Positions 8,155 through 23,660 are shown, numbered from the stretch's first letter. The stretch: 32,000 nucleotides of DNA from Synechococcus sp. A15-24 (GCF_014280195.1 NZ_CP047960.1:1590001-1622000), one strand, 5' to 3'. The notes: a model not told the origin generated them from the sequence alone. Numbers and translations are program-made.

Positions 8155-8754
8155 ATGAACTGGCGACTGTTGTTCGGGGTGATCGCGTTGATCGCCACAC
8201 CTTGCTTGGCACAGGCCGAGGACGATCCGTGTCTGAAGGCAGCGGACTACAAGGGCTGCAAGGAGTACCAGTCCGGCCAGAACTTTGAGCAAACCTCAGG
8301 CAATGTTGAGGTGAAAACGACAGGGGACCACAACTACAAACCGAGCTCAGTGCGCCAGATGAAGGCTCGCGGCAGCTACGGCCGCTACATCAGCTTCGTG
8401 GGCACCACGTTGAATGAATACGCTGGGAAGCCAGCCAGCTACAACCCGGGCATGCCCGGCAGGAAGGTGTGCAACACCACCTACGGCTTCAACAAGCAGA
8501 CCCAGACCACCACCTGCCAGCAAGTGGGCTATGTGGCACCGAGCTACACCCCCGGCACGCCGGGAGGTGTGGAACGACGCAGCTTTCGATACCAACTGGA
8601 CTGCAAAGACCTCACATTTGATCGCAAGGGCGACTTCAGCGGATTCGGCAACAAAGGCTGGATGGGCGTGGACAACGATCCAACCGCACAAGCGGTGGCC
8701 GATCGCTACTGCTCAGCCACCCATAACCTTCCAAAGGAGAGTGGCGAGGAATAA
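8155..8754 (+). CDS. Secreted Cys-containing protein, unknown function
   Basis: 199-aa ORF. Signal peptide MNWRLLFGVIALIATPCLAQA, with six Cys in the mature part. Composition is host-like. It is the last GC-rich gene before the AT-rich island. Confidence 0.6.
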   Translation: MNWRLLFGVIALIATPCLAQAEDDPCLKAADYKGCKEYQSGQNFEQTSGNVEVKTTGDHNYKPSSVRQMKARGSYGRYISFVGTTLNEYAGKPASYNPGMPGRKVCNTTYGFNKQTQTTTCQQVGYVAPSYTPGTPGGVERRSFRYQLDCKDLTFDRKGDFSGFGNKGWMGVDNDPTAQAVADRYCSATHNLPKESGEE

Positions 8755-9052
8755 ACGACACGCTAGAAATTTCAGGGACAGCACGACAGTTGATCAGTCA
8801 AAAACCGGTAAACATTGCAACCAGATGACTGCGACAAGGCCGAGCAAAAGGGGCAAAGAGACCAAATGATTGCCTGTCTAAGGTGATATGGTTTCAACAG
8901 TGATGGGCTACTGAACGGAAGCATCAATTTCAAGCCAAGATGCAATTCAATCGACATTTATATACGCATCCATTCCCAACAAACCATTGACCAACCAAGC
9001 AACACATGCGAACATAAGTTTGATTTAATTTTGCACGGGGAGAGTAGCTACG

Positions 9053-10033
9053 TTGACCGATCTTTCCTCCATTGTCACATCGGTGTATCTGCCCATCGTG
9101 GCAGCCGTTGGCAGCGGGATGATCTTCAGCAAACTGCTGGTCTCCTACGGAGGAGCCTGGGGAGAAAGCAACAGCAGACGCATACCGGCTTTCCTCGCAC
9201 AATTCCTGCTGCGCATTGGGATCCCAATCGGAATAGCCAACTTCGTGCGCAGCACGGAGCTCTCTGCCAGCGCCTGGATTGCTCCGATCACGGCAAGCCT
9301 GGCGATTGCACTGGGCTTACTTTGCTCCGCCTGCATCCTGGGGCCAATGAGCTCCATTCTTGCTGCCACTCGCCGCAGCTTTCAACTCAGCAGCTACGTA
9401 GGAAATACGAGTTTCATTGGATTTCCTGTGGTATTACTCCTGCCGCAACTTGGCCCCAGCTACTTCGGCGTCGCCGTTCTATACGACATCTTCGGAACCG
9501 TTTTGGGCGGCTATGGACTGGGGGCATGGATTGCAACCCGAGGAGAGAACGGCAACACAAGAAGCTCATGGCGCAGCGCCATAATCAAAACGACCCAACT
9601 TCTCTACAAAAATCCCTCACTGCTGGCATTTGTTGCTGGACTTCTCCTCAAATTGGTTGAACTTCCGGAAACGATCAACTCCATCCTCAGCGTGATTGCA
9701 TGGGGCTCGATCATGCTGGCTTTGCTCACCATGGGGATGAGAATTCAACAGCTCAGCGGTTCTGGCTCATTTCAACTGCCGCTTAAAGCCGTTCTAATCA
9801 AAATGGTGGCTGTACCACTTTTCATCGGAGCTTTGCTGACAGCGACAGGATTTGCCGGCCCTGAACGCTTAATCCTAGTACTGCAAGCGGGCATGCCCTG
9901 CGCCTTCGCGACTCTGGTGTTAGCCGAAAATTTCAACCTCGATCGAGCACTTACAGTTCAAACATTAATCATAAGCAATCTTATTTTGCTGCTTACGCTT
10001 CCGATCTGGGTTCTTAGCTTAACCTCCTGGTGA
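9053..10033 (+). CDS. AEC-family (auxin efflux carrier / membrane transport protein) permease
   Basis: 326-aa polytopic membrane protein with about 10 hydrophobic segments in two halves separated by a polar loop (TRGENGNTRSSWRS). N-terminus SIVTSVYLPIVAAVGSGMIFSKL is typical of PF03547-type carriers. TTG start preceded by GGGGAGAG. Confidence 0.7.
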   Translation: MTDLSSIVTSVYLPIVAAVGSGMIFSKLLVSYGGAWGESNSRRIPAFLAQFLLRIGIPIGIANFVRSTELSASAWIAPITASLAIALGLLCSACILGPMSSILAATRRSFQLSSYVGNTSFIGFPVVLLLPQLGPSYFGVAVLYDIFGTVLGGYGLGAWIATRGENGNTRSSWRSAIIKTTQLLYKNPSLLAFVAGLLLKLVELPETINSILSVIAWGSIMLALLTMGMRIQQLSGSGSFQLPLKAVLIKMVAVPLFIGALLTATGFAGPERLILVLQAGMPCAFATLVLAENFNLDRALTVQTLIISNLILLLTLPIWVLSLTSW

Positions 10034-10113
10034 CATCATCAGATCAATCCCTGTGGGCACTGCAGCAGGGTTACAGGAATTCACTAGAATAATTTGAGGC
10101 TCCGGAGTTTCGC

Positions 10114-11490
10114 TTGAAGGGTCAGCTAGCTCTCGCATCAATCCTGTTGGGCTTATCCGTTGGTGGCTGCAACGTCACCGGGGGGAACCAAGCAACTTCA
10201 CCAACCTCCAACGATCGTGAACTTCTCATTTGGTGGTCTGAGGGGTATTACCCAGAAGAGACGGACGCCATTGAATCAATCACCCGTCAATGGGAAAAAG
10301 CAAGCGGCAACAAAGTAAAGCTTGTTTTTTTCAATGATGGTGAAATCTCACAGAGGGCAACAGAAATTCTGAATGGAGGCCCGAAGCCAGACTTGATGTA
10401 TGGCTACAGCGTTGGAGACAGCCATGGACCAACGTTTGCCTACAAAGGTTTTCTTCTTGAAACAAGTGACGTTATCGAAGAATTCAAAAGTGACTATTCA
10501 CCTGGAATCATTGAAAACATCACTTTTCTGAATAAACAAACTAAAGAGAGACATCCATATTCCATACCTCTTTCAGTGAGCTCAGCCTACATTCACTACT
10601 GGAAGGATTTACTTGAAGAAGCAAACGCGACAGACCTGGCAATCAATATCCCAGACACCTGGAACGAGTTCTGGGAATTCTGGGGCGTCAATCAAAAGAA
10701 AGCAATTCAGGCTGGCTTCGTCGATATCAAAGGCGTTGGCCTACCGATGGCAAGTTCGACATCTGATACCCATATTCTGTTTGACTTTTTCCTGGAAGCT
10801 CACGAAGCCAAGATTATCAACACATCCGGAGAGCTGTTGTTGAGAAAGCCCGAAGAACGCAAAAAAGTCATCAAGGCAATGGAAAATTACACCAGCTTCT
10901 ACAAAAGAGGCTGGGTGCCCTCAAAGGCAACCGAATGGGGTGACGTAGACAACAACATTAATTTCCTGAGCAGCTTGTCTCTGATGACAGCCAACCCCAC
11001 ATTATCGATTCCAGGGTCTCAAACGGCAGACGAAGTCGCCTACTACGAAAGAATTGCATCAATCGGGTGGCCCAAAGGCATGACTGGCAAGAAAGTTCGT
11101 ACAGATATTTCGGTGAAACAGATGTTTATCTTTGACACCAACAAAGCCAAAGAGGCCAAGTCCTATGCACGCAATCTCATAAAACCAGAAAATTTGTCGG
11201 CCTATGTTGAAGGATCACAAGGTCGTTATCTACCCGTTTCACAGCGAATTCTAGAAAATCCATTTTGGAATCAATTGCGAAACACACATATCCAAGCATC
11301 TCGTGAGACCGTAGAAAATTATAAACTTGCTTACCAAATACTAAACCCAGCTTACACAGAGGTCAGAAGACTGAATATTTGGGCTCAAGCCATTGAACAA
11401 GTCTGCGTCAACAACACTCCAGTTGATGTTGCTGTTGACAACGCCATCGAGTCGATCGAATCAATCTTCAAGAAGTGGGAGAGATCATGA
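10114..11490 (+). CDS. Extracellular solute-binding lipoprotein (ABC-type family 1, sugar-binding-like), orphan: no permease or ATPase nearby
   Basis: Lipobox ILLGLSVGGC. LLIWWSEGYYPEE...ITRQWEKASGNKVKLVFFND...GGPKPDLMY resembles carbohydrate SBPs. TTG start with GGAG 8 nt upstream. Its stop overlaps the next ATG (ATGA at 11487-11490). Confidence 0.8.
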   Translation: MKGQLALASILLGLSVGGCNVTGGNQATSPTSNDRELLIWWSEGYYPEETDAIESITRQWEKASGNKVKLVFFNDGEISQRATEILNGGPKPDLMYGYSVGDSHGPTFAYKGFLLETSDVIEEFKSDYSPGIIENITFLNKQTKERHPYSIPLSVSSAYIHYWKDLLEEANATDLAINIPDTWNEFWEFWGVNQKKAIQAGFVDIKGVGLPMASSTSDTHILFDFFLEAHEAKIINTSGELLLRKPEERKKVIKAMENYTSFYKRGWVPSKATEWGDVDNNINFLSSLSLMTANPTLSIPGSQTADEVAYYERIASIGWPKGMTGKKVRTDISVKQMFIFDTNKAKEAKSYARNLIKPENLSAYVEGSQGRYLPVSQRILENPFWNQLRNTHIQASRETVENYKLAYQILNPAYTEVRRLNIWAQAIEQVCVNNTPVDVAVDNAIESIESIFKKWERS

Positions 11491-12476
11491 AAATTTCACA
11501 CATGTCTTGCACCGAGATTTTCATTGTCTTGCTCACTGTCACAAGCTCCGTTGGCCTGTTGACATATTTCAGTGATACAAGAACAACCGGGCATCAGGCA
11601 TATGAAGCGCAAAAGCAAGTTTTGACTGAAAGAGCTACAGCATTTACCGAAGCAAAAAAGTCTCTGATCGACTTGATCAGCCAACACTTGAAGAACCCTG
11701 AATTCAAGGAAAAAAGCATTAAAGTATTATCATCGAAAAAACGTCTGCGTCCAAGCCGACCAAGTACCGACTCCAATACCAATGGAGATGTTTACACAGC
11801 AGGAATTTTTCAAACAAATCTAGAAGCAGAAAGCATATCAATCCTCACAGCTGGTGCCATTGTTGCTTTATCAACAGAAGCCAAGAAAACAGGTCGCTAT
11901 CAACCAGTTCAAAATACAACAACCTACATTGACCCCGAAAAATCAATTGATGTTGGCCTGCGATTTTTCAAGGATCCTCGAGCTGGACGTCCTACCGCAA
12001 CCATTGCCCTACCAATTCGTGACGATACAAATAAAAGACGTGGATATTATTATGTTGACATCAATCCAAAAATATTGCATGGCTCAATGTTCAAACAAAA
12101 TCAATCCAGCACCCTCTCGCCCCCGGAGAACACCCATGCCGTTGCCTATACATCATTGAATCGAATTACTGAAATTTACAATCCAATTGAGCCAAACCAA
12201 TACCCACCATTAAAAAGCGAAGGTATCAACAATGCTCTCAACGACAGACCTGGAACATATCTCTATCTAAATCATCAACGAAAACCTGTCGTGGGTGCTT
12301 ATCAATACATCCCCGCGGCCAACATGGGTCTCTTGATTGAAAGAGACCAGTCTGTTTTGTTCAAGCAAGCTAGACGTAGATTAATAAAAATTCTAATCAC
12401 CGGATTCTCGATATCTGGCATTGCTTTTCTGGCATTAAAACAGCTGAAAACGCAGAACTCGAAGAAAAACCTATAA
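11487..12476 (+). CDS. 2-TM membrane protein with a large periplasmic Cache-like loop and no cytoplasmic output domain
   Basis: N-terminal TM (IFIVLLTVTSSVGLLTYF) and C-terminal TM (ILITGFSISGIAFLAL). The loop ends with KPVVGAYQYIPAANMGLLIERDQSVLF, reminiscent of the last strands of Cache/PDC sensor domains. ATG 11487 is preceded by GGGAGAG. The ORF track offers GTG 11475 in the same frame. Confidence 0.65.
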   Translation: MKISHMSCTEIFIVLLTVTSSVGLLTYFSDTRTTGHQAYEAQKQVLTERATAFTEAKKSLIDLISQHLKNPEFKEKSIKVLSSKKRLRPSRPSTDSNTNGDVYTAGIFQTNLEAESISILTAGAIVALSTEAKKTGRYQPVQNTTTYIDPEKSIDVGLRFFKDPRAGRPTATIALPIRDDTNKRRGYYYVDINPKILHGSMFKQNQSSTLSPPENTHAVAYTSLNRITEIYNPIEPNQYPPLKSEGINNALNDRPGTYLYLNHQRKPVVGAYQYIPAANMGLLIERDQSVLFKQARRRLIKILITGFSISGIAFLALKQLKTQNSKKNL

Positions 12477-12482
12477 ATTCAT

Positions 12483-14621
12483 ATGTCTCTTCAATTCCAA
12501 AGGTGGCTTATTAAGCCCGTACTACCTCTTAAAAACAAATTCAGGGTAATTAAAACACTGCAATTTACGTTTACAGCCCAGATCACATTTGTAATCATAC
12601 TGCTATTTTCGATCGGTAACGTAGTCATCTTCCGCACAACATCAGAGCGTCTGATTCGCAATACTCACCTTAGAAACAGAGATCAGGTAACAGGTCTCGT
12701 GAGCAACATAAACCAGTGGAAAAAGTCGACTGTTTTACTGATGGATACATTGAGCAAACAACCTGGGATAATCAATCTGGACGACACACAAATCAATGCA
12801 ACATTGAGGCAAGTCACACGCTTGACAGCTGACAGAGTCTGGCGTGTCTTTGACCGTCAAGGGAACTTGGTTTACACAAGCCTTGAATCTGAACAATCTC
12901 CGCATCAGCAAAAGCTTCTTGAACTGAGACACAAAGACTACGAAGGTTTCAAGAAAGCTCGCAATGGACAATTCAGTTGGAGTGTTGCTTTCCTGCAAGC
13001 AGGTATTAAAACCGAAGGATGCCTGAGTGCTGATCAGCCAATCTTTAAGTCAGCCAGTCCTGGTGGTACATCTGAAGTCATCGGCACACTGAGCTTCTGT
13101 CTGCCACTGGAAAAACTGGGAGCAGCCATTGGCATTGCTGGAACCGATCAAATGAGAAGTGACGAAACACTCAGCGATTCAGTCTTACCCAACAGGCTAA
13201 GTCCAACCAAAAATCCGGACTATCTTGAATTCCATCGCGGTGATTATAAGGGCCGTGTGACTTATCTTATTTTCGAAAGTGGCAACATCGTTTTTCCGAC
13301 CGCATCTGATTCTCGTTTTGTACGAATTTCAATTCAGTCCCCTCGCCGTCTATCAACAACAGCTTGGGGGAGATTGAATAAGCTCATAACACGTCGCGGC
13401 AACTTCAATACCTTTCAAGAAATCAACCTAGATGGAAATAAACTTTTAACGTTTGCGATGACTTCATCAGCAGGCAACACTAACTGGATTGCTGTCAATG
13501 CAATCGACAAACAAACAATCTTTGATCCTTTAAACAAGTCTCTTTTTCAACTGCTGATCCTCCAACTCTCAACGCTGCTGATTACAAGTGTCGCGATTTA
13601 TTTTGTATGCCGACAGCTCACACGGCCGTTGAATCAAATCATCTCACGCATACAAGCTCTAAGTGACCTAGACATAAGCCTAAGTAAAAATCACATAATC
13701 CGGGAGGCTTGGATCCGCGAGATCAATAATGTCTCACTGGCAACCAATCGACTGACACGCGCTATCGAATCATTTTCTAGATATCTACCAAATGAAGTTG
13801 TTCGGTCACTTCTTCTGAACGACAGGCGGGCTGAATTGGGCGGTACAACTGAACATGTTGCAGTGATGTTCACCGATATCGATAATTTCACGTCGTACAC
13901 AGAATCAGTTCAGACACAGGATTTATTCCGCTATCTGAATGAATATTTCACCGAGCTCACTAATCATGTGAGAGCAAATAAGGGCACGATTGATAAGTAT
14001 ATCGGCGATTCAATGATGGTGATGTGGGGGATGCCCACTCCGCTGACAAATCCATGTGAACTGGCCTGCGAAACGGCCATCGCACTCCGAAATGCCAGCA
14101 ATCGACTGAGGGATGAGTGGGCTCAACAGAACGCACCACTGAGATTCAACACTCGAATCGGTCTACACTACGGAGAAGCCATTGTTGGCAATGTCGGCGC
14201 AGCTGATCGATTCAATTACACGATGGTGGGAGACACTGTGAACTTGGCAAGTCGTCTTGAAGGTGCGAACAAAACGTACAAAACCAACATCATTGTCAGC
14301 CATGCGCTCCTGGCACAACTTGAGCAGGAGCAGGCCTTGCATCGGTTTGCCTTTCGCATGATTGGCGAAGTCAAAGTAAAAGGCAAAAGTAAAAGCACGA
14401 TCATTTACGAACTTTATGATCAACGATGCTCGCTTCGACAACCCCAGATCGAAGCCCTGGATGCATGGAACTGCATCATGAAACGAGCTATTGATGGCGG
14501 CAATCTCGCCGCATTGGAGCAGTTGGCGGCTGAAAACGAGGAGCTCAGAGCTCATCCGCTTTTGATTCAACTCAAACAAGAGCTTGAGTCGTCGGCGAAG
14601 TCAATCCACCACACAACATGA
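12483..14621 (+). CDS. Membrane-bound class III adenylate cyclase: TM, periplasmic sensor domain, TM, HAMP, cyclase homology domain
   Basis: TM1 FVIILLFSIGNVVIF. A loop of about 300 aa follows, then TM2 LLILQLSTLLITSVAIYFV. A HAMP-like segment is RQLTRPLNQII...NRLTRAIE. CHD motifs are VAVMFTDIDNFT (about 13861-13893), DKYIGDSMMVMWG (about 13991-14030) and NYTMVGDTVNLASRLEG (about 14214-14264). It starts 6 nt after the preceding stop. Confidence 0.85.
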   Translation: MSLQFQRWLIKPVLPLKNKFRVIKTLQFTFTAQITFVIILLFSIGNVVIFRTTSERLIRNTHLRNRDQVTGLVSNINQWKKSTVLLMDTLSKQPGIINLDDTQINATLRQVTRLTADRVWRVFDRQGNLVYTSLESEQSPHQQKLLELRHKDYEGFKKARNGQFSWSVAFLQAGIKTEGCLSADQPIFKSASPGGTSEVIGTLSFCLPLEKLGAAIGIAGTDQMRSDETLSDSVLPNRLSPTKNPDYLEFHRGDYKGRVTYLIFESGNIVFPTASDSRFVRISIQSPRRLSTTAWGRLNKLITRRGNFNTFQEINLDGNKLLTFAMTSSAGNTNWIAVNAIDKQTIFDPLNKSLFQLLILQLSTLLITSVAIYFVCRQLTRPLNQIISRIQALSDLDISLSKNHIIREAWIREINNVSLATNRLTRAIESFSRYLPNEVVRSLLLNDRRAELGGTTEHVAVMFTDIDNFTSYTESVQTQDLFRYLNEYFTELTNHVRANKGTIDKYIGDSMMVMWGMPTPLTNPCELACETAIALRNASNRLRDEWAQQNAPLRFNTRIGLHYGEAIVGNVGAADRFNYTMVGDTVNLASRLEGANKTYKTNIIVSHALLAQLEQEQALHRFAFRMIGEVKVKGKSKSTIIYELYDQRCSLRQPQIEALDAWNCIMKRAIDGGNLAALEQLAAENEELRAHPLLIQLKQELESSAKSIHHTT

Positions 14622-14769: not shown

Positions 14770-15237
14770 TCAGCAATCGCGCGCCCAGCGTGCCATGGCT
14801 TTTCCGGGGTCGGCGATCTGCTCAAGACTGGTGTAAACGAAGTCCTGCCAACCCTGCGCCGGCAGACCGGCGAACAGCATCAGGTTGAGCGGGTAATCTT
14901 CGGAATCCGTACAACGCCTGAAGTCGTCGCGGAACAAAAAGGTGGGTTTACCCAGGGCGATCGCTGCACCCAGTTCCACCATCACCCCCTCATCGGGCGG
15001 CGTTCCGTTCACGATCGCGAAAAGGCCATCGGCATCCCTCACATCCTGCAGATCACGTTGGGCCACCTGGTGCGCCCAACCCGGCTGGGCCACATCCAAC
15101 TGGCCGTTGCGGGCGAACGGTTCCCAAACTTGAAGACCCAGCCCTTCAAGAGCTCTGATGAATTCCGGCAGCAGCAGACGCTTCCATTGTGCTGAAAATC
15201 CGTAAGGGGAAGCGAGATAGATCGTGGGCTTGGCCAT
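14770..15237 (-). CDS. Nucleoside 2-deoxyribosyltransferase-family protein
   Basis: IYLASPYGFS at the N-terminus and DEGVMVELGAAIALGKP, the family's catalytic Glu context. 155 aa. The start overlaps the PRTase stop (TGATG at 15235-15239). Confidence 0.75.
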   Translation of the reverse strand: MAKPTIYLASPYGFSAQWKRLLLPEFIRALEGLGLQVWEPFARNGQLDVAQPGWAHQVAQRDLQDVRDADGLFAIVNGTPPDEGVMVELGAAIALGKPTFLFRDDFRRCTDSEDYPLNLMLFAGLPAQGWQDFVYTSLEQIADPGKAMARWARDC

Positions 15238-15632
15238 CAGCCCACCCCCCGGGAGCTGAGATAAGTCTGCTCATCGGCGAGGGCCTGGGCGGCGTTTTCC
15301 CAAGGGAACAGCAACCACTCGGAGCTGTCTGTGACAACCACCGCGTCCCACCACTGGGGAGGGCGCTTGCTCACCCAAACTACAAAATTGGCCTTGGGAA
15401 AGCGGATATGCAGCGATTCCAAGGTGCGGCCGGTCTCATAGACATCGTCCACGATCAATGCATCGGGCTGGGGCTCAGCCAACAACGGTCGCTCGAGCGC
15501 ATGGCTCAAGGCCACGGCCAGACAAAGTCCACCGCGTGGCACGCCATAAACACCCGCAAACGACGCCGAAGACAACTGTTCAACCAGGATCTGCACGGCC
15601 TGATCAAATTCCAACCAGCTGAGAACCCTCAT
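15237..15632 (-). CDS. Phosphoribosyltransferase (type I PRTase domain) protein
   Basis: PRPP-binding loop ALIVDDVYETGRTL, and GVPRGGL upstream. ATG at 15632 gives MRVLSWLEF.... The ORF track's TTG 15650 is an alternative start. Confidence 0.7.
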   Translation of the reverse strand: MRVLSWLEFDQAVQILVEQLSSASFAGVYGVPRGGLCLAVALSHALERPLLAEPQPDALIVDDVYETGRTLESLHIRFPKANFVVWVSKRPPQWWDAVVVTDSSEWLLFPWENAAQALADEQTYLSSRGVG

Positions 15633-15667
15633 GGCTGGACAATGAAACAAGTTGGCAGTAGTGGCCC

Positions 15668-15907
15668 ATGACCAGCGACATCCCGCCGCAGGAACAGGTG
15701 CGCAAATGGTTCCGCAGCCATCTGCTCAACCGCGAAGTGGAACTCCAGGAGCTGTATGACCTTCCTCAGGGCGAACTGAATCTGCTGATGGCGGAAACCG
15801 CCGAGATCCGCTCCGATCATGAAAATCGTTCCCGCAGCCATGGTCGCTGGTGCACCGCCGGCTATGTCCTGGAATTGGCCCGCATCATTGATGCCCGCCG
15901 AGCCTGA
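15668..15907 (+). CDS. Small hypothetical protein (79 aa)
   Basis: ATG start and clear GC3 bias in this frame. The antisense ORF 15629..15913 lacks a plausible composition. No domain recognised. Confidence 0.45.
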   Translation: MTSDIPPQEQVRKWFRSHLLNREVELQELYDLPQGELNLLMAETAEIRSDHENRSRSHGRWCTAGYVLELARIIDARRA

Positions 15908-15909
15908 CA

Positions 15910-16113
15910 TCAAGCTGACTTCAAGTAGACCTTGCGGCCGTGAGCATCAACACGGTATTTACCACCGCGAGGTCCGATATGGATGACATCAGAGTCGGAC
16001 ATTGACGATATGGCAACAACCTTTGGCGAATCGATTTGGGTGATATCAGCCTTTACCTGGGGTTTGAAAATGTTCCGGCCCGTCCTCAAAAAAAGAAAAG
16101 TTGCGATGGTCAT
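15910..16113 (-). CDS. Small basic protein with a C-terminal GPRGGKY...GRKVY motif
   Basis: 67-aa ORF in a lower-GC islet. The C-terminus IHIGPRGGKYRVDAHGRKVYLKSA resembles the short basic GPRGG-type adaptor motif seen in phage and large-virus proteins (from memory, unverified). An internal ATG (MSDSDV...) is an alternative start. Confidence 0.4.
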   Translation of the reverse strand: MTIATFLFLRTGRNIFKPQVKADITQIDSPKVVAISSMSDSDVIHIGPRGGKYRVDAHGRKVYLKSA

Positions 16114-16143
16114 TTTGGGTCAAATTCAGATTGGGTTCAAACT

Positions 16144-16413
16144 TCATTGTCCGGAGGGGTCAATAGGTGGAGTCAGAGACGTGGGATCCAACATGGCCAT
16201 CACGCGCTCCCATTCAGCTTTGTCAATCAAACCACCCTCAAGAAGCTGGTTGAGCACCCGTGGATCAATGGGCAAATGCGTGAGATCCTTCACCGACTGA
16301 CAAGCCTTAAGGGACTCCACCAAAATCGTCTGGGCTGCCAATTCAGGCGTCAGCCCAGGGAAGCGCTCCTGCATGTCATCAATCATCTTTGCTGCAGCAT
16401 CCTTATCCATCAT
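16144..16413 (-). CDS. Small acidic hypothetical protein (89 aa)
   Basis: ORF on the same strand as pstS, 42 nt downstream of it, with lower GC than the core genome. No recognised domain. Confidence 0.4.
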   Translation of the reverse strand: MMDKDAAAKMIDDMQERFPGLTPELAAQTILVESLKACQSVKDLTHLPIDPRVLNQLLEGGLIDKAEWERVMAMLDPTSLTPPIDPSGQ

Positions 16414-16455
16414 CCTTCAAAGAATCAGTGCATCGTATTCATTCAAGTGTAACCA

Positions 16456-17433
16456 TCACTCCCCGATCTTATTCACCGCAGATTTCGACTTCGCCAGAAT
16501 GTCACCCCGCAGAGGTACAAAACCAAGCCGTGGGGCCACATTTTGTGCTTCATCACTCAACATGAAGTTGAACACTTCTTTAATGGTGGCTGCATCAGGA
16601 CCATTGCCCCGCTCATAGGCCAACACCCAGGTGAGTGTCGAGATTGGATAAGCACCAGATGCTGTTGGATTCGGATTCTCCCCAGCCAGATTCTGATCGA
16701 GGGTGATCTGGTTCAAGGCAATGGCACCTGCCTCAACGCTTGGCTTGACGAACTCACCAGCCAAATTCTGCAACGCAGCTGCTTTGACCGAACCACGGAT
16801 GTACGACTGATTGAGATAACCAATCGCCCCCTCCCGCTTCTTGATCACAGCTGCAACGCCAGCATTACCCTTGGCACCAACACCACTGGGCCAGTTCACC
16901 GCTTTACCGGTTCCCAACGTCCAGGACGATGAAAAGGCTGCCATCGAACTGGTGAAGGCCTTGGTGGTTCCAGAGCCATCGGATCGATGAACCCAGCTGA
17001 TCGGTCCGGCGGCACAACCCAACTCCGACCAATCCTTGATTGCAGACATGGCCACCTTCACCGCCTGCTCTTGGGTGAGTTGCAAATCACAGCCGGGTTT
17101 ATTAAATCCGAAGGCAATGGTGCCTCCGATCATCGGAATCTGAACAACTCCACGCTTCACCTTGCGGCGATCACGGCTGATCATCGGGTCATCCGATGCA
17201 CCGAAATTAACCGTTTGATCTAGATAAGCCTTGCGACCAGAACCGGAACCGATGGCCTGGTAATTAACCATCGGACCATCGTTTCCGGCCAGCATGCCGA
17301 ACCAACGCTGATAGATCTGCGCAGGGAACGTTGCTCCTGCTCCGGTGATCCGCCCAGACGCCAAAGCAGAACCGCTCAGGCTGAGCAGCAGAACCGCGCC
17401 TGACACGACTGAGGGTCTGATCAGGTTGTTCAT
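16456..17433 (-). CDS. pstS: Phosphate ABC transporter substrate-binding protein
   Basis: A signal peptide followed by ITGAGATFPAQIYQRWF...YQAIGSGSGRKAY...FGASDDPM. These are canonical PstS motifs. Confidence 0.9.
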   Translation of the reverse strand: MNNLIRPSVVSGAVLLLSLSGSALASGRITGAGATFPAQIYQRWFGMLAGNDGPMVNYQAIGSGSGRKAYLDQTVNFGASDDPMISRDRRKVKRGVVQIPMIGGTIAFGFNKPGCDLQLTQEQAVKVAMSAIKDWSELGCAAGPISWVHRSDGSGTTKAFTSSMAAFSSSWTLGTGKAVNWPSGVGAKGNAGVAAVIKKREGAIGYLNQSYIRGSVKAAALQNLAGEFVKPSVEAGAIALNQITLDQNLAGENPNPTASGAYPISTLTWVLAYERGNGPDAATIKEVFNFMLSDEAQNVAPRLGFVPLRGDILAKSKSAVNKIGE

Positions 17434-23084: not shown

Positions 23085-23157
23085 GCGCCGTTAGTTCAGT
23101 TGGTAGAACGCAGGTCTCCAAAACCTGATGTCGGGGGTTCGAGTCCTCCACGGCGCG
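23085..23157 (+). tRNA. trnW: tRNA-Trp (anticodon CCA)
   Basis: Manual cloverleaf. Acceptor GCGCCGT/ACGGCGC, D stem GTTC/GAAC, anticodon stem CAGGT/ACCTG with loop CTCCAAA, T arm GGGGG-TTCGAGT-CCTCC, discriminator G. CCA is not encoded. Confidence 0.9.
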
Positions 23158-23195
23158 TCCGATGAATCCCGTTGTGTAGTTTCCCGGTTCTGAGC

Positions 23196-23384
23196 ATGGA
23201 GTTGGATCTTCAACCTGGTGATGTCGTGAAGGTGCTCGAGTCAGCCGCCCTCGGCTGGGTTCGTGCCCGCGTGATTCGCGTCAAATCAGGTGGACGCGTG
23301 GTCGTGCAGAGCGATCAAGGTCGGGAGTTCACCGCCCGAGGCAATCAAGTCCGGCTGATTGAGCCTGCGGGCTTCCGTCCCTGA
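23196..23384 (+). CDS. Small hypothetical protein (62 aa, possibly SH3/Tudor-like)
   Basis: MELDLQPGDVVKVLESAALGWVRARVIRVKSGGRVVVQSD.... Good GC3 bias, and followed by an intrinsic terminator. Confidence 0.5.
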   Translation: MELDLQPGDVVKVLESAALGWVRARVIRVKSGGRVVVQSDQGREFTARGNQVRLIEPAGFRP

Positions 23385-23405
23385 TCGCTGAGCGGCTTCA
23401 TCCGC

Positions 23406-23441
23406 AAACCCCCGATGACTTCGTCCTTGGGGGTTTTGTTG
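23406..23441 (+). terminator. Rho-independent terminator
   Basis: aaaccccc (23406-23413) pairs with gggggttt (23429-23436) and is followed by a T-rich tail, ttttgttgt. Confidence 0.5.
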
Positions 23442-23489
23442 TGCCCAGACTGCAACAATGCTGATCAGCACAGCAATTGAACGGAATTG

Positions 23490-23519
23490 TTGACGGAGGG
23501 CAGGGCGAGGGTCAATACT
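23490..23519 (+). promoter_or_regulatory. Candidate sigma70-type promoter for trnD-gltX
   Basis: TTGACG at 23490-23495, then 17-18 nt, then caatact (a weak -10), about 70 nt upstream of tRNA-Asp. Pattern match only. Confidence 0.25.
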
Positions 23520-23586
23520 GATTTGGTCGCGCAGGCGACACAGATCAGATTCCACAAGGCGAGTCCTTCGTGTCTGAGTCAGGTCT

Positions 23587-23660
23587 GGGACCGTAGTTCA
23601 ACCGGTTAGAGCACCGCCCTGTCACGGCGGAAGTTGCGGGTTCGAATCCCGTCGGTCCCG
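23587..23660 (+). tRNA. trnD: tRNA-Asp (anticodon GTC)
   Basis: Manual cloverleaf. Acceptor GGGACCG/CGGTCCC, anticodon stem CCGCC/GGCGG with loop CTGTCAC, T arm GCGGG-TTCGAAT-CCCGT, discriminator G. Confidence 0.9.

Follow-up and report, generated by a model that had tools for sequence, protein, structure and literature searches.

The genes of the cluster

Four genes on one strand of Synechococcus sp. A15-24 were examined in a stretch of 32,000 nucleotides (nt), NZ_CP047960.1:1590001-1622000. The whole stretch is called the window here, and its positions are counted from its first letter. The genes encode an AEC-family permease, a solute-binding lipoprotein (gene 1), a membrane protein with a periplasmic domain and no output domain (gene 2, P2), and a membrane adenylate cyclase (gene 3, P3). 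Together they are a candidate receptor that would report an extracytoplasmic solute through cyclic AMP (cAMP). Their coordinates are given in Table 1.

A preliminary description of this DNA had placed genes 1 to 3 in one overlap-coupled operon. These three genes are as it described, and a conserved fourth gene upstream, for the Mem_trans permease, was missed. Direct reading of the sequence bears out the reported gene coordinates, the shared orientation, the ATGA overlap, and the 6-nt gap. At the junction of genes 1 and 2 (GAGAGATCATGAAAATT), gene 1 stops and gene 2 starts within the ATGA at 11487-11490. At the next junction, the TAA of gene 2 (12474-12476) is followed by the 6-nt spacer ATTCAT (12477-12482) and by the ATG of gene 3 at 12483. 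The AT-rich composition of the genes was seen as well, both in the GC profile of the window (0.41-0.46 across 10000-14500 and ~0.60 on either side) and gene by gene (0.45, 0.41, 0.43, and 0.49, with flanks at 0.61). The intergenic stretch that precedes the permease gene is the likely promoter region of the four-gene operon. Scans for consensus promoters and terminators gave nothing above shuffled sequence. Rfam models found only two tRNAs in the window and no riboswitch or other RNA element that could hint at a ligand. The cluster has no similarity to phage genomes, and its sole match on plasmids is one distant homologue, on a Nostoc plasmid.

Table 1. Coordinates of the four-gene cluster, its encoded domains, and related phosphatase genes (aa, amino acids; AF2, AlphaFold2; pLDDT, predicted local distance difference test; ORF, open reading frame)
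Feature	Position	Strand	Remarks
AT-rich intergenic stretch	8755-9052	+	~300 nt upstream of the permease gene; no + strand ORF
AEC-family (Mem_trans) permease	9053-10033	+	326 aa from a TTG start; 80 nt upstream of gene 1
Gene 1, CUT1-type solute-binding lipoprotein	10114-11490	+	TTG start, 458 aa; lipobox Cys19 codon at 10168-10170
Gene 2 (P2), transmembrane-dCache-transmembrane protein	11487-12476	+	ATG start, 329 aa; a GTG at 11475 is likewise open
P2, first transmembrane segment	11517-11573	+	
P2, periplasmic domain	11574-12380	+	
P2, second transmembrane segment	12381-12437	+	
Gene 3 (P3), membrane adenylate cyclase	12483-14621	+	712 aa; AF2 mean pLDDT 73
P3, first transmembrane segment	12576-12632	+	
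P3, periplasmic sensor	12633-13550	+	aa 51-356
P3, second transmembrane segment	13551-13607	+	
P3, HAMP-like linker	13608-13802	+	aa 376-440
P3, class III (IIIb-type) catalytic domain	13848-14399	+	aa 456-639; Guanylate_cyc E 1.2e-25
P3, helical C-terminal extension	14439-14609	+	aa 653-709; AF2 helices pLDDT ~90
IcfG-like phosphatases (transmembrane-sensor-transmembrane-HAMP-SpoIIE), Synechocystis and Vulcanococcus	L003 2249-4153; L048 4197-6116; L028 5948-7936		

Gene 1 has a single N-terminal hydrophobic segment that ends in LSVGGC, and the Cys19 of this motif is invariant in 20 homologues. The product is thus a lipoprotein. The window protein itself reaches no Pfam solute-binding model, has no usable match in Pfam or NCBIfam, and is marginal by phmmer against the PDB sequences (E ~0.01). 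Its homologues carry Pfam SBP_bac_1/8. The AF2 model (pLDDT 88.4) was searched with Foldseek, and the top PDB matches were MalE3, a beta-glycoside-binding protein, and a sophoro-oligosaccharide-binding protein (probability 1.00, template-modelling score 0.7-0.8, 16-19% identity). Gene 1 is therefore identified as a solute-binding protein through the Pfam matches of its homologues and its predicted fold, which is the two-lobed CUT1 oligosaccharide-binding fold. The lipoprotein with a sugar-like binding fold of the preliminary description was recovered by these routes. Among the 20 homologues, invariant Trp residues are abundant in this fold, and these are a hint on the ligand, which is most likely a glycoside or an oligosaccharide.

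Other hints on the ligand come from neighbouring genes in related loci. Genes for glycan enzymes (isoamylase, alpha-amylase-like, GH43/32-like) lie near some of them. Several sensors carry an inserted PG_binding_1 domain within their periplasmic part (for example L078 11375-13027), and a gene for a VanY D-Ala-D-Ala carboxypeptidase directly follows the binding-protein gene at L030 11477-12337, L033 2255-3064, and L043 11330-12151, three of the seven loci that lack a sensor gene downstream. The last two observations hint at a link with the cell wall.

P2 has transmembrane segments at aa 11-29 and 299-317 and a C-terminal cytoplasmic tail of 12 aa. Lacking a cytoplasmic domain, it is limited to contacts in the membrane or the periplasm. 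It scores 23.8 bits against Pfam dCache_1 (PF02743; E 3.8e-5, cutoff 45 bits), and several neighbouring sensors homologous to P2 pass this cutoff at 51-69 bits. Compared by hhalign with the sensor modules of the dCache-HAMP kinases encoded beside binding proteins, P2 aligns over its full length (probability 100%, E 3e-128). By this sequence comparison it is plainly a homologue of those modules. The possibility that P2 is a decaying kinase fragment was rejected; a length of ~330 aa is kept from marine Synechococcus to Synechocystis and Leptolyngbya, and the ratio of nonsynonymous to synonymous substitution rates (dN/dS) is 0.13-0.19. A split of one sensor-cyclase into P2 and P3 was likewise rejected; P3 has a complete transmembrane-sensor-transmembrane module of its own. 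P2 is the fastest-evolving of the four genes. The other ratios are 0.035-0.064 for gene 1, 0.05-0.08 for P3, and 0.07-0.09 for the permease gene. With values of 0.035-0.19, all four genes are under purifying selection.

The transmembrane segments of P3 are at aa 32-50 and 357-375. Its homologues are picocyanobacterial cyclases throughout, and the best solved relatives of its catalytic domain are CyaB (3r5g) and CyaC (1wc0). Residues D465, K505, D509, T580, N587, and R591 are invariant in 20 homologues and align with the FSDI, DKFVGD, and YT..G..VN.A.RL motifs of CyaB and CyaC. From published CyaC structures, the two Asp residues presumably bind metal, the Lys and Thr specify the substrate, and the Asn and Arg stabilize the transition state. 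Judged by this alignment, P3 carries the complete Lys/Thr signature of class IIIb adenylate cyclases and is predicted to be catalytically competent. The C-terminal extension is missing from the homologues P0190, P0192, and P0194. Transmembrane prediction agrees with the earlier account of two membrane proteins that each expose a large periplasmic loop, P2 with no output domain and P3 with a class III cyclase at its end, which the Guanylate_cyc match identifies.

For the earlier assignment of P3 as a Cache/HAMP protein, the similarities found are remote. Pfam assigns neither Cache nor HAMP to the window protein and no family to its periplasmic domain. Among 20 homologues, HAMP is weakly matched in five (best E 0.011) and dCache_1 in one. 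In its favor, the AF2 model of the sensor has a long helix followed by alpha/beta elements at aa 101-216 and 258-342, and hhalign aligns the sensor with dCache-HAMP sensors over 344 collinear columns (probability 74%, E 2.8e-5). A hidden Markov model (HMM) of the P3 sensor family matches dCache sensors encoded beside binding proteins at E 1e-13 to 1e-16. With the short P2 family, hhalign gave only 10%, confined to the N-terminal transmembrane segment and helix, and the longer sensors were therefore required for the comparison. A fold search of P3 was dominated by cyclase matches and did not confirm the dCache fold. The linker (RQLTRPLNQIISRIQALSD) was aligned by hhalign with the HAMP AS1 of the kinases, at an AF2 pLDDT of <50. 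The sensor may thus be a divergent dCache-like double PDC module with a HAMP-like linker, a remote inference from profile alignment and modelling.

Several other features of the window can be listed. It encodes PsaF, which together with close matches in Synechococcus single-cell genomes marks the DNA as that of a marine picocyanobacterium, and the matching 90% protein cluster contains Synechococcus sp. A15-24. At 8155-8754 (+), between the dCMP deaminase and permease genes, a gene encodes a protein of 199 aa that seems to carry a signal peptide and matches no Pfam family. GC starts to fall at this gene, and marine contigs L006-L010 have a 200-aa gene at the equivalent position. Directly after the cluster come a nucleoside 2-deoxyribosyltransferase gene and an ORF with a phosphoribosyltransferase-like motif by sequence, and two tRNA genes are found ~8.5 kb further along; the positions recorded for these features are 14770-15650 (-) and 23085-23660 (+). 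A second GC dip, to 0.51-0.53, spans 15500-17000. A gene for a PstS-like phosphate-binding protein (PBP_like_2) lies at 16456-17433 (-), and no pstCAB genes were found in the window.

Binding-protein neighbourhoods across cyanobacteria

One genome per GTDB species was scanned with an alignment pattern of the binding protein, and the resulting 78 loci were mapped with HMMs built from the window proteins. Seventy-six of these are cyanobacterial. The two outliers, at 31% identity, are labelled proteobacterial. A P2-like or P3-like sensor gene lies immediately downstream of the binding-protein gene at 68 of the 76 cyanobacterial loci, and is lacking at seven; the remaining locus ends at the contig edge. 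Pfam searches of representatives identified these sensors as dCache_1-HAMP proteins with varying outputs. The outputs are HisKA-HATPase (~650 aa), HisKA-HATPase-REC (~800 aa), a PAS-HisKA-HATPase-REC hybrid kinase (1,000-1,100 aa, some with an inserted PG_binding_1), MCPsignal as in chemoreceptors, HAMP only, or none at all, which is the P2 type.

Such adjacency of a sensor with interchangeable outputs is the pattern expected of a co-receptor. The binding-protein clades follow the architecture of the partner, and the pairwise distances of binding proteins and sensor domains are correlated (Spearman 0.87; none of 300 permutations as high). Shared descent contributes to this correlation. The four-gene unit would be the picocyanobacterial version of a cyanobacteria-wide cassette in which this binding-protein clade is joined by a dCache sensor. 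The kind of output differs from locus to locus and can be a histidine kinase, a hybrid kinase (often with a GAF-cyclase encoded next to it), a chemoreceptor, a PP2C phosphatase, or a cyclase.

Some of the loci need a comment on their source. The titles of L015, L020, L022, L024, and L041 name Pimelobacter, Rhizobium, Pseudanabaena, or a 'proteobacterium'; these are metagenome-assembled contigs whose genes and architecture match picocyanobacterial or other cyanobacterial loci, and the labels look wrong. The homologue on the Nostoc sp. NIES-3756 plasmid pNOS3756_1 (447 kb; L092, 373950-375374) is a 31%-identical binding protein. Its gene is flanked by those for a divergent hybrid histidine kinase and a response regulator, with anti-sigma antagonist, kinase, and PP2C genes downstream and no ABC genes.

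Gene 1 could also be an ordinary component of an ATP-binding cassette (ABC) transporter, serving a permease and ATPase encoded elsewhere in the genome, with the sensors regulating it or sharing its regulon. Its fold is that of CUT1 transport binding proteins, and the databases name its homologues ABC substrate-binding proteins. Cyanobacteria commonly have their ABC genes scattered, and orphan binding proteins are frequent among them as well. Since the window holds a second orphan of this kind, the PstS-like gene, orphan status alone is weak evidence in this organism. The preliminary description had noted that the window has no ABC permease or ATPase gene, and neither a motif scan nor Pfam searches of the large ORFs found one in the 32 kb. 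It had also held that homologues normally flanked by ABC genes would speak against a receptor. In a motif scan of the neighbourhoods, genes for EAA-loop ABC permeases directly follow the binding-protein gene at only two of the 78 loci, the outliers L085 and L086, and adjoin it at none of the ~74 cyanobacterial loci. The detection of permeases in the outliers makes them a positive control for the scan. An ABC permease gene thus adjoins that of the binding protein in the nearest non-cyanobacterial relatives and not at the cyanobacterial loci, where a sensor is the conserved neighbour over deep divergence and all output types. At L065, a complete ABC operon is present 6 kb away, and it has its own binding protein. 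For these reasons, a role confined to ABC transport is considered unlikely. Many signalling binding proteins also serve transporters (PMC8050422), and a dual role of gene 1 in transport and signalling would not contradict its being part of a receptor.

The permease upstream of gene 1 scores 45.7 bits against Pfam Mem_trans (PF03547; cutoff 25.7) and has multiple transmembrane segments. Wherever the P2 homologue is short (27 of 27 loci), and in all of the marine contigs, a permease gene of this type directly precedes that of the binding protein in the same orientation. At the hybrid-kinase loci it is found within 1.5-3.5 kb in 10 of 11, often on the opposite strand. None of the 29 loci with a kinase or chemoreceptor of 640-830 aa has this permease. 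Operons that run permease, binding protein, P2 and carry no gene for an output also exist, in Vulcanococcus, Synechocystis, Snowella, and Microcystis. In Vulcanococcus (L001 4516-6435) and Synechocystis (L003 4684-6816), a gene directly upstream of the permease gene encodes a protein of 640-710 aa that matches Lar_N weakly; the window has no such gene. By synteny the gene is taken to correspond to slr1862/3 of PCC 6803; in the Kazusa strain, ISY203b interrupts slr1862/3.

These arrangements raise the possibility of a tripartite secondary transporter, in which the AEC permease works with the binding lipoprotein and with P2 as a docking or adaptor subunit, and P3 monitors the solute or the state of the transporter. 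The invariant gene order at the 27 short-P2 loci would fit such a transporter, as would the trio that stands without an output gene in four genera and the restriction of P2 to membrane and periplasmic contacts. We know of no AEC transporter that depends on a binding protein. The sensor module is fused to the kinase at the hybrid-kinase loci, where the permease gene lies 1.5-3.5 kb off, and the permease can thus do without a free P2. Further, the binding protein and a sensor occur with no permease at 29 loci, and P2 itself is a sensor-module homologue. A tripartite transporter in this sense is regarded as quite improbable. Fainter still is the chance that the permease, lipoprotein, and P2 form an unknown class of binding-protein-dependent secondary transporter whose occupancy is read by the cyclase, or elsewhere by a PP2C phosphatase or kinase. 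The four parts would then be a 'transceptor' that couples the uptake or export of a saccharide-like solute to cAMP.

Cyclase genes were found only near the binding-protein clades that are associated with the permease and never near the other clade. They are of the P3 type in picocyanobacteria and are GAF-cyclases, encoded after a hybrid kinase, in Arthrospira, Roseofilum, and Lyngbya. Further cyclases lie near the binding protein in Halothece and Synechococcus lacustris. At L039, L042, L044 (Arthrospira platensis PCC 7345), L045, L055, and L089, the binding-protein gene is followed by that for a hybrid kinase of 1,000-1,100 aa and then by the GAF-cyclase gene. The domain order of these kinases is dCache, PG_binding_1, HAMP, PAS, HisKA, HATPase, and REC. 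The hybrid kinase with the GAF-cyclase is a second, indirect route from the cassette to a cyclase.

The pairing of two dCache sensors beside one binding protein recurs as P2 with P3, P2 with a dCache-HAMP protein, P2 with a dCache kinase, and two kinases that flank the binding protein. In Microcystis (L036 11409-16789), P2 is followed by a convergent gene for a soluble HisKA-fragment/REC/SpoIIE phosphatase and then by a dCache-HAMP histidine kinase gene. At L034 (2891-5711), P2 and the convergent phosphatase gene are present, with a further P2-like gene as a fragment at the contig end. Leptolyngbya sp. PCC 7375 (L077 8826-9916) has ~1.1 kb with no ORF of >=90 aa between the upstream kinase gene and the binding-protein gene, and gaps like this one occur in related two-kinase loci.

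Distribution of the cyclase form and the P3 sensor family

The four-gene order of the window was found in marine contigs that share its flanks, with the dCMP deaminase gene upstream and the nucleoside deoxyribosyltransferase gene downstream. Three marine Synechococcus genomes also have it, as do about eight species of freshwater picocyanobacteria (binding-protein identity 45-47%), and the gap between P2 and P3 is <=6 nt across lineages. The triad of binding protein, P2, and P3, whose lack of conservation elsewhere would have spoken against the preliminary proposal, is conserved in many metagenome contigs and at no fewer than 12 additional species-level loci of picocyanobacteria. In the low-light genome of Prochlorococcus sp. 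MIT 0707, only the binding protein and the cyclase are present (L038 10001-13664). The two genes are 41 nt apart, and no P2 or permease gene was found within 10 kb of them.

The pair in Prochlorococcus has a GC content of 0.36-0.40 in flanks of 0.54. The cluster is 10-20 GC points under its flanks in this genome, in marine Synechococcus, and in the freshwater relatives, whose flanks are at 64-71% GC, and in GC it lies near the homologous clusters of low-GC cyanobacteria. In the species-level scan, only five marine Synechococcus genomes and one Prochlorococcus genome were matched. The low GC and the small number of marine genomes make a horizontal origin and an accessory status plausible. The preliminary description had spoken of an accessory island. 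Its low GC and its rarity among marine Synechococcus support this, whereas the cluster occupies the same syntenic site in several lineages and its freshwater relatives are equally AT-shifted.

An exhaustive phmmer search of 1.8 billion representative proteins placed the P3 sensor domain in only 34 clusters. The outputs on P3-type sensors are this cyclase or a HAMP-SpoIIE (PP2C) phosphatase in proteins of ~660 aa, and a few have HAMP only. In Vulcanococcus (L028), a P3-type sensor fused to HAMP-SpoIIE, 29% identical to P3 over 386 aa, is encoded near a paralogous binding protein. An insertion-sequence-type transposase gene (L028 8545-9468, -) separates the two, and the gene that follows the binding protein (L028 11813-13690, +) resembles an alpha-amylase-family enzyme by sequence.

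The P3 sensor-family profile also matches IcfG-like phosphatases of Synechocystis PCC 6714 and S. salina (E 5.8e-14 and 2.2e-12). Their genes lie ~4 kb upstream of the permease, binding-protein, and P2 genes. The homology covers only about half of the domain, so the link between IcfG and the P3 sensor is kept as a lead and not as a finding. Literature on slr1862-slr1865 holds only mentions of strain polymorphism and chromatin immunoprecipitation and no function, and the Synechocystis orthologues are annotated as hypothetical.

The distribution of P3 bears on another explanation, in which the P3 periplasmic domain binds a signal directly, or the catalytic domain senses bicarbonate or CO2, and the other genes are a separate module. 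The periplasmic domain is complete (305 aa), and in 20 homologues it has two invariant cysteines, C180 and C206, and many other invariant positions. The closest solved relatives of the P3 catalytic domain, CyaB and CyaC, are bicarbonate-responsive class IIIb enzymes with the Lys/Thr pair. Most of the dCache receptors that have been characterized bind their ligands directly (PMC8050422). On the other side, P2 and P3 are held at <=6 nt across lineages, Prochlorococcus MIT 0707 has retained exactly the binding protein and P3, and the SpoIIE-fused sensor of the P3 type is again beside a paralogous binding protein. Taken together, input that bypasses the binding protein is judged to be improbable.

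Proposed mechanism and comparison with known systems

The genes from 9053 to 14621 probably form a single four-gene unit that acts as a binding-protein-dependent receptor with cAMP output. The proposal builds on what was read directly from the loci and models, namely the gene structures, folds, topologies, the intact catalytic residues of the cyclase, conserved adjacency and co-divergence, and ABC-free neighbourhoods. The lipoprotein would bind an extracytoplasmic solute of the glycoside or oligosaccharide class. Once loaded, it could dock on the periplasmic dCache-type modules of P2, P3, or both. The conformational change would run through the second transmembrane segment and the HAMP-like linker of P3 to the cyclase dimer and alter cAMP synthesis, either up or down. 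P2 may be a co-sensor, as a heteromeric partner of P3 or as a coupler to the permease, and the AEC permease may move the same solute.

Such a receptor, which turns an extracytoplasmic ligand into cAMP, had been the proposal of the preliminary description. It is supported in part, and well so on the side of comparative genomics. The conserved sensor adjacency, the complete set of cyclase residues, and the ABC-free neighbourhoods all argue for it; the Cache/HAMP part of P3 is remote, and the permease opens a reading as transport.

Several points weigh against the proposal. Adjacency and co-divergence can also come from co-regulation and shared descent. Cyanobacteria often scatter the genes of their ABC transporters, so a distant permease and ATPase are possible, and the window has its orphan PstS-like gene. 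The large periplasmic domain of P3 could bind a ligand directly, and bicarbonate or CO2, to which class IIIb enzymes of the CyaB and CyaC kind respond, would be an alternative input. The Cache/HAMP assignment of P3 lacks a Pfam match and depends on the hhalign value of 74% and a linker of low AF2 confidence. Several genera have P2 and no P3, and Prochlorococcus has P3 and no P2; a heteromer of the two is therefore not obligatory. Finally, the presence of the permease at all 27 short-P2 loci suggests a transport function beyond a pure signalling model.

If the proposal is confirmed, cAMP will join the outputs of binding-protein-dependent signalling, and a cyanobacteria-wide and essentially unstudied sensor cassette with swappable outputs will be defined. 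It would also suggest an extracellular input for the IcfG carbon/glucose hub of Synechocystis and offer a concrete way into the perception of dissolved organic compounds by marine picocyanobacteria. The cassette can be tested genetically because it is present in the cultured Synechococcus sp. A15-24 and, without the cyclase, in Synechocystis.

The preliminary description knew of no characterized triad of binding protein, co-sensor, and adenylate cyclase, and searches of the full-text literature likewise found no description of a binding-protein-dependent adenylate cyclase. In a 2021 review, the receptors stimulated by binding proteins comprise chemoreceptors, kinases, c-di-GMP enzymes, and Ser/Thr kinases, and adenylate cyclases are not among them (PMC8050422).

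Among systems with related parts, the IcfG (Slr1860) cluster of Synechocystis sp. PCC 6803 is alike in that IcfG-like transmembrane-sensor-transmembrane-HAMP-SpoIIE proteins match the P3 sensor profile. IcfG is genetically tied to the coordination of glucose and inorganic carbon, and its extracellular input is not identified in that work (PMC12329169). It is unlike P3 in being a PP2C phosphatase that feeds an anti-sigma cascade rather than cAMP, and a binding protein has not been reported to take part in IcfG signalling. The tripartite ATP-independent periplasmic (TRAP) transporters and tripartite tricarboxylate transporters (TTT) also combine the genes of a binding protein, a secondary permease, and a small accessory membrane protein, but all three components are of other protein families. 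The cluster encodes no DctP/TctC-type protein with DctQM/TctBA subunits; it has instead a CUT1 fold, a Mem_trans permease, and a small dCache protein.

The adjacency and co-orientation of binding-protein and sensor genes that is typical of HptAS, LuxPQ, TorTS, and CuaDSR is also found here (68 of 76 loci, with tight junctions). LuxP-LuxQ, TorT-TorS, and ChvE-VirA share with the proposed receptor the use of a periplasmic binding protein as co-receptor of a membrane transducer (PMC8050422). They differ in their kinase outputs, in the families of their binding proteins (Peripla_BP types), and in having no third or fourth membrane component.

In HptA-HptS (HptARS) of Staphylococcus aureus, a dedicated solute-binding protein gene lies beside that of a membrane dCache sensor. 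The loaded binding protein bridges the sensor domains and shifts the transmembrane helices (PMC8050422). This system differs in having a histidine kinase output, one sensor, no permease gene in the unit, and glucose-6-phosphate as the ligand, and HptA has no close sequence relationship to gene 1. In CuaD-CuaS-CuaR of Ruminiclostridium cellulolyticum, a signalling binding protein of the sugar type is encoded beside its sensor, and CuaD is separate from the transport binding protein of CuaABC, the ABC system that CuaDSR controls (PMC10384115). The layout at L065 resembles this CuaDSR/CuaABC arrangement. CuaDSR is unlike the cluster in its Firmicute two-component output with a transcriptional regulator, and it has no cyclase, output-less second sensor, or AEC permease. 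HptA-HptS and CuaD-CuaSR are the closest analogues of the four-gene cluster, and LuxPQ, TorTS, and ChvE-VirA are more distant.

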